Shown here piece by piece: positions 56,701 through 62,700 of a DNA stretch of 64,000 nucleotides; within the stretch, counting starts at the first letter, position 1, and each line of letters begins with the position of its first letter. The DNA is taken from NCBI RefSeq assembly GCF_003790525.1, contig NZ_CP033635.1. One strand, 5' to 3'. The position numbers were made by a program. Source of the DNA: Escherichia coli (GTDB taxonomy: Bacteria; Pseudomonadota; Gammaproteobacteria; Enterobacterales; Enterobacteriaceae).

Positions 56701-59700
56701 CGGCAACCGCTCCTGACGATACAACCAGCGCACCATCAATTCGGTGTAGTTGCGCAGCTTGACCAGACAACTTTCCGGATCGGAGTGAACATAGCGTTCC
56801 GCCATACACGCGAGTTCAGCCAGTTCCGGCCACTGGCTGCGCAACATTTCAAAATTGAGAGACTGCTCCATCAATCATCGCCTTATGTCGTGGATACAAC
56901 AGCATTTCTGGAAAGAATATCACACTAATTTGGCCGACGAAGTGAGCCGGATGGCATATGGTGGTGATGTGTTTAACGACATAACTGCTCTAACGGTCAG
57001 ATCCTTGGTTTTCGCCCATCAATGGGCATCTTCAGCCATGGCTACTCACAGGATACCTTGCTAACCAATGAAGGTATGGCTGATCATCTATGGGATATGT
57101 TTTTTGAGCCAATAAAACGATGGAGCTTTTCTCCAAGTTCATCATTAATGAATTTTGTTTCAATGCATTAATCAACTCTTCGCATTTTCGCTATCTTTTA
57201 TCCACTTCCCTTTTGAAAAGGTGGGTATCTACGTTACCAATACTGGTTTAATGGCTACATACGGCGGTCCGTTTACGCTTACGGTAAAGATAAGCGATAA
57301 GCTCCCAGCGCTAGGACCGGGAGCTCTGCATAGCTACCACCATTTAGGATAGTCGTTAAAAGCACGTAATATTGATTGCCTGGCAGCAGGCATCAAGCTT
57401 TTCACTTCCTTTTGAAAGGGAGATACCACCATTGATATCTTCCTTCATACATGACCAATTCAGCACACCAGCGACTGGATATGGCGGGAAATGGTGGCCC
57501 GGGGGTTACAGGCAGTGAAACCATCGTCAGGGATGCTGTTGCCAAATGGCGTAAAGGCTGGAACCCACCAGTTACTACTGCCGCCAGACTTCCTTCAGTG
57601 TCCCGGGTAAGCCGCTGGTTGATGCCCTGGATAATAATCAGGGGTGAAGAAAATTATGCTTCCCGATTTATTAGTCTGATGTGTGAAAAAGAACCGGCGC
57701 TGAAAATAGCGCAGCAACTAGTACTTGAGTTCTACCGTATTCTGAAAACCCCAAATAAATCAAATCTAAGCAGTTGGTTCACTCGAGTCCACGAAAACGG
57801 TTCAGCAGAACTTCGGCGCGTGGCTGCGGGGATGGAAGCTGATGCTGCGGCTATATGTGAGGCAACCAGCAGCCGCTGGAGTAACGGTGTTGTCGAAGGT
57901 CATGTAAATCGCCTGAAGATGCTGAAACATCTGATGTATGGTCGAGCCGGATTTGAACTACTTAGGCAGAGGGTAATGAGTCCACTGGCATGAAAATCTC
58001 CACCTAGGTTGCGGAAGAGCCACTTTTGCACCGTTCGTGATAATACCGTAAATAAGCCTCTGAAAGTTATAGGATATGACACAACTAAAGAAGTCTGTGT
58101 GAACCGCGTAATACCAAGTGAATTGCTTGTTATATCTGTTTAATTAAACCTAATCGACCAGCCTTACTGGAGAGGCTGGTTAGTGATTAACTGGGAGTAT
58201 TGCAATTAGATGTGTTCTACAGGCCCACGAAGGTAGATGGCTGCCAGAGTTCATCTTCGCGTGTAAAAGACTCTTAGTTGATTAATTCTAATTTATCGAT
58301 CTATTACGCGATCATAATATTCGATGATTTGCAGTGCAACAGCAGCAATTTGTACTGCTTCCTCCCTACTGGTACCGGCTGCTTTACCACCAAAACGATC
58401 ATGGAGGACAGCCTGATGAAATTCTCCCACCTCTTCTCCGAGAATCGCTCCCCAGATAAAAGGATCTTGATTACGGTCTGCCCCCCATTTGGCATCCTGC
58501 CGTTGCATTTCCGCTAGCACGTCAGACAGGGCTTTAGTGTCTTGATGTTTACCTTTCATGTTTCCCTTACGAATCCGTGATTTTAAGTCCATCATTAACA
58601 TTTAATATGTGCAGAGTCCATTAATTCGCTACATCTCATTTTGTGAATGAGCGTTGAGTTTGCTATAAACGTAGCAACCAAGAAAAATAAAAGTGGATAA
58701 TTTTGTTCATTACCTTTCAAAGCAAGAAGTTAAGGACTATTTGCGAGAGTATGCATGAGGCAAATGAGATCTTTGGTGACAAAGTGGCATCAAGACTACG
58801 CTCGCGACTTTCCGATCTTTCCGTGACAGACAACATATTACTGTTGCCCGTAGGTTCGCCGGAGGTCTGCTTTGAGGATGGGGAAGAGTGTATTACAATT
58901 ACCATTCTCGGTGATGTAAAAATGGGATTTGTCTGTGGGAATACAGTTCAGCCCAAAAATCAAGATAATACAATTAACTGGTCCCGAGTTAGCCGGATAC
59001 GGTTAGTGTTCATAGGTGACGTGAAATGATAGTTACGCAGGACTTCCAGCCTGACTGGGTATCTCCACCCGGTGATACAATTATAGATCTAATGGATGAA
59101 CATGGGCTTTCTGGTGAAGAACTGAGTAAGAGGATTGGATTGTCTCTTATCCGGGGTCAGCAACTTCTTGAAGGAAAAATCCGACTCAATGAGTCTCTGG
59201 CTTGTAAGCTTGAGGAGTTATTCAACGTATCGACAGACTTCTGGATCAAGCGCGAAGTCGCTTATCGCCAGCAAATTGGATACCTCGAGAAAGTGAATAA
59301 TGATTGGCTCGAATCATTGCCTGTACGTGATATGATGGAGTTTGGTTGGATCCCCAAAACTACAACTCGGGAAAGTAAATTCCAGCACTGCCTATCGTTT
59401 TTCGGAATAAATTCCGTCAATGATTTTTTTTATAAAATTCAGTCAGATGCTCCTTTGGTCGCTTTTCGTAAATCTCTTAATCTGGCAACCGAGCCTATGG
59501 CCGATTTGGTGTGGCTGACTAGGGCTGCACAACTTACCTCAAACCAAAACTGTGCTGTATGGGATAAAGAGGGGCTGATAGCATTGTTGCCAGAACTGCG
59601 CAAAGCTACAAATGAACCCGACATGAGGATTTTTATCCCTTACATTCGCGACCTTCTCGCCACTGCTGGAGTTTCTCTCGTTGTGTTGCCAACGCCAAAG

Positions 59701-62700
59701 GGATGTCGGGCAAGTGGTGCTACCTGCTTTTTTACACCAGATCGCGCAACCCTAGTCATGAGTTTCCGTTATCTGACCGATGACCATTTTTGGTTTACGC
59801 TGTTTCATGAGATTGGGCATCTCATCTTGCATGAAGCTGTCCGAGTTCGCGTAGAAGGTAAAGATAGTCTTTCGTCGGAAGAGGAAAAGGAAGCAGATAA
59901 ATTTGCCGTTGATGTTCTTATCCCAGAAGAATACCGGCAGCAACTTAGTCGCTATGGTGTCCGGCATTGGAAAGAGATCATCCGGTTAGCTAGGAAAATG
60001 GGGGTATCCAAAGGGATCGTACTGGGATATTTGCAGCATGAAGGTAATATACCTTTTTCTCACCTTAATCGGTTTAAAGTGAGATTCCGTAAAGAAGATA
60101 TCGTCTGATATCAGCCGCCGAAATAGACATAACGGTCAGGTGATTTCTGCCAGTTGCACAACGCATCTTCAATAACCTGCATTCTCAAGTAGGGTGCAGG
60201 AATAATTGCCGCAAGGTCAGCTAGTTTTTCATTCAATACGTCTATTGTGTCACCAGCAGTCCGGCTATTGCTGAAAAGTAGCCGGCTTCCTTGAAGGGGC
60301 CCGGTTGCTCCATTCAGAAAAGCATGACCCGGCTCTACATCCAGAAGTCCCGTTTTCTTGAGCATAGTTAGGTAATCAAATTTTGCGGTTCGTCCAAATG
60401 AGATCACGGCATTTAGCCCTGAATACAATAGTTCGAATAAAGATTCTGGTGAAGATGAAAAGCTCTTGGCCTCTGCAAACCTAGCCTCATGACTGTGTGT
60501 AGCACCAATGAATCCGATGTAAGAGCGAAAAACCGCAGGTATTGAACGACGAGAGTGATATTTCTTCGTTTCATATTTCCGATGGTTACCATATTGTCTT
60601 AGGCTACTGTTAGCTGTCAACTCATCAGAGACGCTGGCGAACCATTGTTCAAAAGCAGCAAAGTCATCAGTTATCGTATCCCATGTCCACGTTTGTGTAC
60701 CGAGTCCACTGTATATATCTCGACACAAAATCCAGCCGGTTTTGTTACTCTTGCCGAAATGTGTGGCAAGGAAAACCAGCCAGCAGGCTTCATCGTAATT
60801 GTTGTCACGAAGATAAAGGCAGGCAGCGCGGAGAGGATCAAAAACATCAGAATTCGGCTCTTTTCGTAACGGAGTCATATAATCGGTCCGTAATGCAAGA
60901 GTTTCCACATAGCGTATACGACGTATACTGTCGATAATCTGACAGGCTAAAACATCAAAGCAGGCAGGAGAACTTAGGCCATTTAGGTTGTGTTCATTGC
61001 GGCTAAAATTTTGCAAATTACTAACCAGCTGACTGATTTGATTATGTCTTTTCATTGTAGTCTTCCTTCAAAAATAAACCGATATTCCTGATTTTTCATT
61101 GCAGCCAACTCTTGGAAGGCTAGTCCTTTGTGGTTGGGTGTATGTGAACGTAACAAAAAGTGGATTTTTAATATACGCAATAAATCCTTCCAGTAGTCAT
61201 TCAAGGAAGTAGTGTCAATATCAAATTCCTTATTCTCTCGAAGAGCTTTTTCTGCCTCAAGCAGGGGTAAGATATCATCTAAGGAATGCATTTCAGGCAT
61301 CGATCCCATGACTGGTAGGGTGCTCATGAACCCCTCTTTCTGAAGAGCCTTCACTTTTTCTAAATCATTTTTATAGAGATGTAGGCTGGATACAAAGTGA
61401 TGATAGTGACCCAATTCGCATCCTATCAAGCGGGCAACTAATTCCTGTAGCATCGTGAACGCAAATACATCATGAGGCAGCCCCATAAAGGCATCGTTAG
61501 AACGCATACAAACAAATAGATGCAGCTCTTCACATCTGACAATAAACTGCATAGATATTGTACAAGGAATATCTACGTATTCTCGCTGTTCAGTTTTTGA
61601 GGGCACCAAGTCTGAGGCATCGAAAAGCTGTATTACTGCACGTCTGGTAGGTTTTTTCTCCTGCAAAAGGTTGATAACATTTTTTAGCTGATTATATAAA
61701 CCACGCATATTAAACAACCGTGGCCCGTAACCACCATGTATTTTCCCATCTGACTCAGCGGATTCAGCGTAACGTGGTATGAAGTGTTTTATAAACTCAA
61801 GATCGTTCTGAGCTGAGAGATACCACAGAAATTCACCTAAGCAACTAATTAGTTTTCCTCGGGATTCTGTTCTACTTATTCTTCGGCGGGGGTCGGTAAG
61901 GACAAGATAGGCACCAAGAATCTCTAGAGTTGATCCTTTTGTAGGATCGTTACTGAGTCCATCCGCTAGGATAGCTTGATGAACATCGTTTATCAGATCG
62001 TCAACACACTCAGCCGTTACCAAAAGAGTCATTTTCTACCTTTTCCTGTATGGTAGTAACTAATCATTACCACCTGTATGGCATATAGTCAATATAGTAT
62101 CAATATCAACATGGTTCACAGGGTAAGTAAGACTTGATCTTACCCAGCAATAGTGGACACGCGGCTAAGTGAGTAAACTCTCAGTCAGAGGTGACTCACA
62201 TGACAAAAACAGTATCAACCAGTAAAAACCCCGTAAACAGCATTCGCCTGAATTTCTCAGTGAAGCCCTGAAACTTGCTGAACGCATCGGTGTTGCTGCC
62301 GCAGCCCGTGAACTCAGCCTGTATGAATCACAGCTCTATGCGTGGCGCAGCAAACTGCAGCAACAAATGAGTTCGTCAGAGCGTGAAAGTGAACTGGCCG
62401 CTGAAAATGCCTGCCTGAAGCGGCAACTGGCGGAGCAGGCAGAGGAACTGGCTATCCTCCAAAAGGCCGCGACATACTTTGCGAATCGTCTGAAATGAAG
62501 TATGTCTTTATTGAAAAACATCAGGCTGAGTTCAGCATCAAAGCAATGTGCCGCGTGCTCCGGGTGGCCCGCAGCGGCTGGTATACGTGGTGTCAGCGGC
62601 GGACAAGGATAAGCACGCGTCAGCAGTTCCGCCAACACTGCGACAGCGTTGTCCTCGCGGCTTTTACCCGGTCAAAACAGCGTTACGGTGCCCCACGCCT

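Follow-up and report, generated by a model that had tools for sequence, protein, structure and literature searches.

We examined a 64,000-nt stretch of Escherichia coli DNA (RefSeq assembly GCF_003790525.1, contig NZ_CP033635.1; hereafter the window), in which a small gene, here called A, overlaps the start of a longer gene, B. A encodes a protein modelled with the fold of the HigB toxin that has lost the HigB catalytic residues, and B a HigA-type helix-turn-helix (HTH) domain fused to an M78 peptidase. Rather than standing alone, the pair makes up one arm of a conserved unit of four to five genes, whose other arm is a convergent cassette of two genes, one for an aGPT-Pplase3 protein and one for an enzyme of the thymidylate synthase (TS) superfamily that looks like a deoxycytidine monophosphate (dCMP) C5-hydroxymethylase. 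Together A-B and the cassette are probably an uncharacterised anti-phage system. To a more specific reading we give about an even chance: that A-B is a HigBA-derived switch of the type found in the PD-lambda-2 defence system, acting as the control arm of a composite system whose enzyme arm is the dCMP-hydroxymethylase-like/aGPT-Pplase3 pair, with a MazG-like protein added in Enterobacterales. The features are collected in Table 1.

Table 1. Features of the locus and its surroundings, in window coordinates
Feature	Position	Strand	Details
Gene A	58703..59029	+	HigB-fold protein, HigB catalytic residues lost; 108 aa, TTG start; from fold model, remote homology and alignment
Promoter-like element 5' of A	58641..58669	+	-35 TTGTGA 58641-58646, 17-bp spacer, extended -10 TGcTATAAA 58661-58669; read from sequence
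Shine-Dalgarno-like GTGGA before A	58693-58697	+	
Gene B	59026..60108	+	360 aa, ATG start; from Pfam, PADLOC, structure profiles and family alignment
HigA-type HTH of B	59056-59277	+	residues 11-84; family profile against HigA structures
Conserved central domain of B		+	about residues 85-235
M78/ImmA-IrrE peptidase of B	59734-60021	+	residues 237-332; Pfam
HEIGH motif of B	59806-59820	+	residues 261-265
Tail-to-tail junction TGAtaTCA	60106..60113	.	stop codons of B and aGPT-Pplase3 gene 2 bp apart
aGPT-Pplase3 / amino-acid:DNA-transferase (AADT)-family protein	60111..61055	-	314 aa; Pfam PF18746 full-length, E 5.5e-90; PF18724 overlapping, E 1.1e-58
TS-superfamily enzyme, dCMP C5-hydroxymethylase-like signature	61052..62032	-	326 aa, WP_000174035.1
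Promoter-like element of enzyme operon	62092 to 62063	-	TTGACT, 18 bp, AATGAT
Imperfect palindrome over the -10 of this promoter	62052-62074	-	GGTGGTAA-N7-TTACTACC; candidate operator
'MazG-like family protein' gene divergent from A	58293..58601	-	RefSeq coding sequence 58293-58559, 88 aa; longest open reading frame 102 aa
Defence-island neighbours	48094-56874		AAA ATPase (PADLOC PDC-M55A 1.4e-40, NsnB, AriA) and adjacent hypothetical gene, then hsdS, hsdM, hsdR
dGTPase-family gene beyond IS3	63512-64000		runs past the window end

The A-B gene pair

A is a genuine gene and not a chance open reading frame (ORF), because its start and promoter-like element are conserved, its family is represented 871 times, its position is kept in 78 of 80 loci and its fold is confidently modelled. 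The TTG start and the TTGTGA-17-TGcTATAAA promoter-like element are invariant or nearly so in six enterobacterial orthologues; a consensus promoter scanner did not detect the element. The family was collected by a profile search of 1.84 billion representative proteins, and its 871 cluster representatives (E<=1e-3) are nearly all 105-111 aa long. Position was followed in a census of B relatives, namely the best 80 of 474 stretches found when 100,044 species genomes were scanned, one genome per species; each census locus is thus one species (n=80), and the loci span many phyla. An A-like ORF lies immediately 5' of B in 78 of them. Homologues of 108 aa occur in Citrobacter, Serratia and others, some labelled 'killer suppression protein HigA' or 'antitoxin HigA' in some sources. 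A is unannotated in the RefSeq record inspected, a product of the Prokaryotic Genome Annotation Pipeline (PGAP), and none of the 15 best-matching E. coli records has it among its features; its TTG start is a possible cause. It is also uncalled at several other loci, for instance in Pectobacterium (L011) and on a Brucella plasmid (L098). A palindrome 5' of A, TTGCTA-N6-TAGCAA, was considered as an operator and dropped; it is not conserved in Serratia and overlaps the apparent extended -10.

The AlphaFold model of A made with a 100-sequence alignment has a mean predicted local distance difference test score (pLDDT) of 94.8, and its closest folds are HigB, YoeB and RelE; it shows the microbial-RNase RelE fold, with one strand, helices and then a four-stranded sheet. 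A model made with six sequences (pLDDT 43.5) was unusable. At the sequence level the link to HigB is faint but consistent. PF05015 is matched weakly by 7 of 100 A-family members (best E 1.4e-3), and hhalign against Proteus vulgaris HigB, whose sequence was first verified against the PDB, gave E 5.8e-4 at a probability of 29%. The A-family hidden Markov model (HMM) can be aligned over the full length with a protein of a Microscilla plasmid that PGAP calls a RelE/ParE toxin (2.6e-17 in a 7-sequence database), and HMM comparison connects A to annotated RelE/ParE toxins that partner more distant B homologues. Searched by itself, A matched nothing in Pfam even at E<=10, nothing in NCBIfam, and nothing in PADLOC at E<=10 (including PD-Lambda-2_A and RmrT); profiles of 6 and of 100 sequences found nothing usable among PDB sequences.

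B, named 'XRE family transcriptional regulator' in RefSeq, joins a HigA domain to an M78 peptidase whose zinc motif is intact, and is of the same type as PD-lambda-2 B. Pfam places Peptidase_M78 (PF06114) at residues 237-332 (E 2.4e-10) and a weak HTH_3 at residues 21-73. The B family profile matches the solved HigA antitoxins 2ICP, 4MCX and 6CHV over residues 11-84 (E 1.5e-9 to 3e-9), and the HigA model TIGR02607 matches at E 7.6e-5 with 22.5 bits, under its 47.7-bit cut-off. His261, Glu262 and His265 are invariant in a 23-sequence family alignment, and HExxH is kept in 84 of 84 B relatives examined. B is matched over nearly its full length by the PADLOC model PD-Lambda-2_B (PDLC03982; E 8.7e-30), with B residues 15-341 on profile positions 60-378 of 402. 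The PADLOC models for RosmerTA RmrA, capP and Lit match around the HExxH only (RmrA for example at residues 257-303, E 4.1e-10; capP at 1.7e-10), and the CapP structure 7T5T is matched weakly over residues 256-338 (E 6e-3). Both ORFs, overlapping in an ATGA that holds the A stop and the B start, are thus as the sequence-only reading had given them, as is its description of the larger protein as an XRE-type HTH (now HigA-type, E about 1e-9) with an HExxH peptidase.

Fusions of this kind next to RelE genes (RelE with Xre-COG2856) were predicted in 2009 to be three-component toxin-antitoxin systems (Makarova et al., PMC2701414). PD-lambda-2, an anti-phage system of E. coli that protects against lambda-vir, has three components: a HigB-like protein (A), an Xre-peptidase (B) and a protein related to a P4 antitoxin (C). 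Its B is toxic when present by itself and is neutralised by A, and defence depends on C (Vassallo et al. 2022, PMC9519451).

Linkage to the enzyme cassette

The layout in which B faces a convergent aGPT-Pplase3 gene followed by the TS-like gene recurs in Serratia, Citrobacter, Pectobacterium, Vibrio cholerae, Pseudomonas and Mucilaginibacter (Bacteroidota), with B identity falling from 86% to 39%, and the linkage still holds in Bacteroidota, Spirochaetota, Acidobacteriota and Chloroflexota at 31-39% B identity. In the census, aGPT-Pplase3 is convergent on B at 62 of 80 loci; a TS-like gene is found at 57, an extra gene for a 265-279-aa protein at 38, DUF4031 at 16 and NUDIX at 3. Of the 18 loci without aGPT-Pplase3, 17 form a separate group in a neighbour-joining tree of the census B proteins and the last is cut by its contig end 20 bp after B. 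The cassette-linked clade, to which the E. coli gene belongs, accordingly holds 63 of the best 80 B loci, and in it aGPT-Pplase3 is convergent on B at all 62 informative loci, that is, leaving out the contig-cut one. The TS-like gene is present at 57 of these 62, and four of the five exceptions are cut by contig ends. In a single census locus, that of Chryseolinea serpens (L062 7001-15056), no TS-like gene was detected although there is room for one downstream and both aGPT-Pplase3 and the extra gene are present.

The reciprocal test, seeded from aGPT-Pplase3 in IMG/VR contigs, gave a TS-like gene for 24 of 24 seeds and a convergent B for 23; the remaining contig ends at the end of the aGPT-Pplase3 gene, so that the count among informative loci is 23/23. 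The abutment is close: over 59 loci the median stop-to-stop gap is 1 bp, 54 gaps are 30 bp or less, and 23 pairs of genes overlap. The unit moves between different islands as one block. In Citrobacter freundii CP016952 (L007 4155-12327) its five genes come straight after a P4-type integrase and are immediately followed by the type I restriction-modification (R-M) genes hsdS/hsdM; in Serratia the unit adjoins proA/proB, and in V. cholerae a HipA-like kinase locus.

These counts bear on the alternative that A-B is an autonomous, 'reversed' toxin-antitoxin or abortive pair of the PD-lambda-2 type, in which B is toxic through its peptidase or HTH, A neutralises it, and the cassette is a separate co-traveller, with A-B perhaps an addiction module stabilising the cassette. 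The toxicity of PD-lambda-2 B, its rescue by A and the good match of our B to the PD-Lambda-2_B model speak for this, as do the 17 census loci and several plasmid loci where A-B occurs without a cassette, near housekeeping or R-M genes; no operator shared by the two promoters was detected by the word search described below. Within the clade, however, the cassette never occurs without A-B (23/23) nor A-B without the cassette (62/62), and stop-to-stop abutment conserved across phyla is unexpected of independent neighbours in shuffling defence islands. Moreover, PD-lambda-2 needs its C component for defence, and C is absent here. We therefore regard an autonomous pair as unlikely.

In many non-enterobacterial loci the extra gene for a 265-279-aa protein stands between the aGPT-Pplase3 and TS-like genes; this gene and the DUF4031 gene were noted at L015 8015-8854 and 9841-10164, at L017 8011-8808 and among census loci L018-L097. 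Neither the 265-279-aa protein nor DUF4031 gave an informative Pfam or PADLOC match.

The enzyme cassette

The two cassette genes are coupled, the stop of the TS-like gene overlapping the start of the aGPT-Pplase3 gene by 4 nt. The best solved relative of the TS-like enzyme is the CMP 5-hydroxymethylase MilA (E 1.6e-41, residues 26-304), and the best true thymidylate synthase matches at 1.4e-18. Glu67, the nucleophile Cys157, Ser178, Asp188, His218 and Tyr220 are invariant in 55 of 55 orthologues, and Arg130 is kept in 54. In the published reading of the MilA active site (PMC5175136) an Asp is specific for cytosine where uracil enzymes have Asn, and an Arg/Ser pair of deoxyribose type corresponds to Lys/Ala in MilA and BcmA. 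Asp188 here is of the cytosine type, and Arg130 with Ser178 of the deoxyribose type. Because the orthologues carry this combined cytosine and deoxyribose signature, the enzyme resembles a dCMP C5-hydroxymethylase or a transferase closely related to one. The annotation of 61052-62032 as 'thymidylate synthase' is probably wrong, since MilA is much the closer relative and the signature is that of a deoxycytidine enzyme.

Descriptions of the aGPT-Pplase family call it DNA-glycosylase-like; members of its clade 2 attach amino acids to 5-phosphomethyl-deoxyuridine in phage DNA. We found no described function for clade 3 in the literature searched, and no homologue of the E. coli aGPT-Pplase3 in 50,697 phage genomes. 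We considered whether the cassette could be a thymidine-hypermodification module of the phage type, in which aGPT-Pplase goes with a 5-hydroxymethyl-deoxyuridine DNA kinase and a dUMP hydroxymethylase, and rejected this on the cytosine-type Asp188, the lack of a kinase in the E. coli cassette and the lack of a phage homologue.

The enzymes also suggest a role outside defence, in which A-B would regulate a modified-pyrimidine pathway, making a 5-hydroxymethylcytosine-derived metabolite (compare MilA/MilB and BcmA) or modifying the cell's own DNA. MilA, the nearest relative of the TS-like enzyme, is a CMP hydroxymethylase of secondary metabolism and is followed by an N-glycosidase in its pathway (PMC4081090); the aGPT-Pplase family is called glycosylase-like and its clade 2 modifies DNA bases. 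We consider this improbable: the 55 orthologues have the deoxyribose-type Arg/Ser and not the Lys/Ala of MilA and BcmA, linked genes include nothing else biosynthetic, the unit is patchily distributed on mobile defence islands and plasmids, and a control module derived from a toxin-antitoxin system is typical of conflict systems.

The promoter-like element of the enzyme operon and the palindrome over it are conserved in Citrobacter and Enterobacter and looser in Serratia and Pectobacterium; the palindrome is unrelated in sequence to the A promoter. At the other end of the cassette, no terminator-like site was found at the 60106-60113 junction, and the convergent transcripts must therefore collide. 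A copy of the insertion sequence IS3, its transposase frameshifted in RefSeq, extends from 62135 to about 63390. Its near end, at 62135, is 103 bp from the TS-like start codon and 43 bp from the -35 of the conserved promoter-like element, upstream of both; in this strain lineage IS3 may disconnect the operon from regulation further upstream or supply an outward promoter.

Divergent from A is the MazG-like gene, which matches phrog_24212 (function unknown; E 3.8e-37) and has no Pfam, NCBIfam or PADLOC match. It is conserved in position in Serratia, Citrobacter, Pectobacterium and Enterobacter and was found at one of the 80 census loci; it is a lineage-specific accessory, confined to Enterobacterales. 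Two of the three Bacteroidota loci with a NUDIX gene have it in the same divergent position (e.g. L017 5105-5485), and from this shared position the two may be non-homologous replacements for one another in a (deoxy)nucleoside triphosphate pyrophosphatase function, a hint that the unit may need such an activity.

Loss of the HigB active site

In P. vulgaris HigB, His54, Asp90, Tyr91 and His92 are each essential for toxicity, and Lys in place of His92 abolishes activity (Schureck et al., PMC5027501). E. coli A keeps the Asp alone of this set: the equivalent of His54 is lost, and Asp-Val-Lys stands in place of Asp90-Tyr91-His92. The decay of the tail motif is visible when the E. coli C-terminus, RIRLVFIGDVK, is set against that of cassette-less relatives, KVRIVFIGDYHD; likewise E. 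coli has ..SPEVCFED.. at the position of their PHPLxG. Asp-Tyr-His is found in none of 60 cassette-linked A proteins, whereas 15 of 18 cassette-less ones end in ..(I/V)GDYHD and keep PHPLxG, matching KLHPLKGD of HigB. The more distant PD-lambda-2-like plasmid loci resemble the cassette-less group in that their A keeps both the GDYHD and PHPLxG features. Over the family, Tyr-His is kept in 3 of 148 representatives, and in the B tree the cassette-linked and cassette-less states are two separate groups. The cassette-less relatives that keep Asp-Tyr-His may well be real toxins. A of E. coli is probably not the toxin of its pair, because the catalytic Tyr-His and His54 are lost and the roles are reversed in PD-lambda-2.

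The sequence-only reading had proposed that the small gene may be a HigB/RelE-like toxin and that the two genes make a toxin-antitoxin-like pair. Relationship to a toxin fold is borne out, because the hhalign, PF05015 and HMM links agree with a model nearest to HigB, YoeB and RelE. The toxin role is not, given the missing Tyr-His and His54. For the pair, descent from HigBA and resemblance to PD-lambda-2 A/B stand, and autonomy gives way to membership in the four- to five-gene unit.

A classical type II HigBA system, with A a ribosome-dependent mRNA endonuclease, B its antitoxin and autorepressor and the peptidase tuning antitoxin stability, has in its favour the HigB fold of A, the HigA-type HTH of B, a toxin-first order with overlapping genes as in higBA, the HigA names given to close homologues and the intact Asp-Tyr-His of cassette-less relatives, but is the least probable explanation considered, since A has no His54 equivalent and an Asp-Val-Lys tail, Tyr-His is in 0/60 cassette-linked homologues, A matches no HigB/RelE sequence model, and PD-lambda-2 has the roles reversed.

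Twelve residues are common to both A groups: Phe5, Cys14, Glu15, Gly25, Leu32, Arg35, Asp38, Gly51, Pro53, Pro84, Trp93 and Val96. They are mostly on the N-terminal helices, and a role in binding B is plausible. The cassette-linked clade adds conserved Asn79, His80, Asp92, Arg98 and Lys100; E. coli A has Gly79-Asn80. Cys14 (58742-58744), together with Arg11 and Glu15, is almost invariant (55/55 cassette-linked, 11/12 cassette-less), which is unusual for a residue of a small cytoplasmic helix; it could be a contact to B or even a ligand of the B zinc.

Proposed mechanism

In the reading that we give an even chance, A would bind the HigA-like N-terminus of B as HigB binds HigA, and would so hold B quiescent, probably bound to DNA. 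A phage-derived or damage signal would break this state, whereupon the B peptidase would act, its substrate being either B or some target, and the enzyme cassette would be released or induced. The cassette would divert deoxycytidine nucleotides, from dCTP to dCMP to 5-hydroxymethyl-dCMP with subsequent processing by aGPT-Pplase3, and phage DNA synthesis might thereby be starved or poisoned. The nucleotide-modifying cassette would in effect have replaced the HigB RNase as effector.

Several points weigh against this switch-and-cassette reading. The cassette and A-B operons are convergent and not co-transcribed. Promoters of A and of the enzyme operon share no word beyond chance (longest common word 8.2 against 8.0 in dinucleotide shuffles, 52 loci), in a test that is weak for short degenerate sites, which leaves direct co-regulation by B without support. 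Relatives of the pair function or are found by themselves (PD-lambda-2 and the 17-member cassette-less group), and A-B could be self-sufficient. The correlation between cassette and Asp-Tyr-His loss is a single evolutionary transition, kept through a wide radiation. With its newly conserved residues, A may have a new activity instead of being inert. The RefSeq name is the sole source of the 'MazG-like' label, the role of clade-3 aGPT-Pplase in the mechanism is predicted, and defence by this locus and clade is a prediction of DefensePredictor.

An evolutionary account, an effector swap, we put forward tentatively, as possible and not as likely: an ancestral HigB-RNase plus HTH-peptidase pair may have captured the cassette tail-to-tail, the RNase then decaying to a regulatory subunit. 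The module would now trigger a new defence chemistry, in which conversion of deoxycytidine nucleotides to 5-hydroxymethyl-deoxycytidine derivatives depletes or poisons the pool for phage DNA synthesis.

Genomic setting and significance

The region is 100% identical in many complete E. coli genomes and is present in 256 of 5426 (about 5%), always on the chromosome. The surroundings, which speak for a defence role, are an island that also has IS3 and transposase remnants, a dGTPase-family gene, an OLD/AriA-like ATPase and type I R-M genes.

Since 2009 it has been a puzzle why HTH-M78-peptidase proteins are paired with RelE-like genes (PMC2701414), and the only tested case, PD-lambda-2, reversed the expected roles without giving a mechanism. 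The two groups described here amount to a natural experiment, one with an intact HigB and no cassette, its sister with a decayed HigB welded to a nucleotide-modifying operon, and make the question of the HTH-peptidase target testable. If the unit is a defence system, hydroxymethylation of cytosine nucleotides would join dCTP deaminase and dGTPase among the nucleotide-pool defences, and clade-3 aGPT-Pplase would gain its first function; if the effector was indeed swapped, the host would be turning phages' own base-modification enzymes against phages. On the practical side, RefSeq annotation of E. coli misses gene A.

Systems of this general type have been recognised since 2009, the test of one member followed in 2022, and the cassette was flagged by a machine-learning screen in 2026. 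In the literature searched we found no paper naming the four RefSeq proteins of the locus, and undescribed there are the obligate stop-to-stop coupling, the Asp-Tyr-His split, the dCMP-type enzyme signature and the missing annotation of A.

Comparison with known systems

The locus belongs neither to PD-lambda-2 nor to HigB proper. It shares with PD-lambda-2 the order of a HigB-like gene followed by one for an HTH, central domain and M78 protein, and the defence-island setting. However, the PD-lambda-2 A protein is PF09907, and A here matches no HigB model, resembles HigB at the level of the fold only and has lost the catalytic residues; component C is absent, and a convergent enzyme operon abuts B instead. 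PD-Lambda-2_C had no PADLOC match among the neighbours tested, and no C-like third gene was found, the small same-strand ORFs after B in some cassette-less loci matching nothing in PADLOC or NCBIfam. Compared with HigB-HigA of P. vulgaris plasmid Rts1 (4MCT, 4MCX), A lacks His54, Tyr91 and His92, and B has about 275 extra residues including the metallopeptidase; membership among HigB toxins thus fails on the catalytic set and on the lack of any model match.

DefensePredictor (PMC13092281) lists the TS-like WP_000174035.1 as a 'Predicted novel defense gene' and highlights an aGPT-Pplase system, which may have the same gene set as ours, as predicted and not validated. The same source describes DS-4 'NTTI', like our unit a defence candidate built on TS-like and base-hypermodification enzymes. 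In contrast to our unit, DS-4 is validated and consists of its own 361-aa TS, an adenylate kinase, a 5-hydroxymethyl-deoxyuridine-kinase-like protein and a TIR protein.

RosmerTA, whose RmrA is called 'spr1629 family repressor/antitoxin' in NCBIfam, likewise has an HTH and M78 protein in a toxin-antitoxin-like defence pair, but the match is limited to about 50-120 residues around the HExxH (E 4e-10 to 5e-5) and the partners are unrelated. On plasmid p4 of Sagittula sp. MA-2 (L099 3187-6476) we noted a 105-aa ORF with a 377-aa 'HigA family antitoxin' that is 25% identical to B. Convergent with this pair are the genes for DarG (E 1.3e-123) and DarT (E 7.5e-66), which form a toxin-antitoxin defence that ADP-ribosylates DNA. 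It is a second case of such a pair facing a DNA-modifying module, and from this one example pairs of the kind may be able to attach themselves to further toxic modules that modify DNA.

ImmR/ImmA, DdrO/IrrE and CapH/CapP combine an HExxH M78 protein with an XRE-type HTH and offer earlier examples of proteolysis that is triggered by a signal and leads to derepression of a mobile element or defence operon. The unit described here differs in carrying HTH and peptidase on one polypeptide and in having a HigB-fold third player.

For the enzyme arm the nearest parallels are T4 gp42 and MilA-MilB. The TS-like enzyme combines catalytic Cys, Glu, His and Tyr with the cytosine Asp and the deoxyribose Arg/Ser, and is followed, as in those systems, by a second enzyme that is predicted for this cassette to act on a hydroxymethyl-pyrimidine. 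It differs from them in being encoded on a bacterial island, and not by a phage or an antibiotic cluster, and in that the second enzyme is aGPT-Pplase3 and not a MilB-type glycosidase or a glucosyltransferase.

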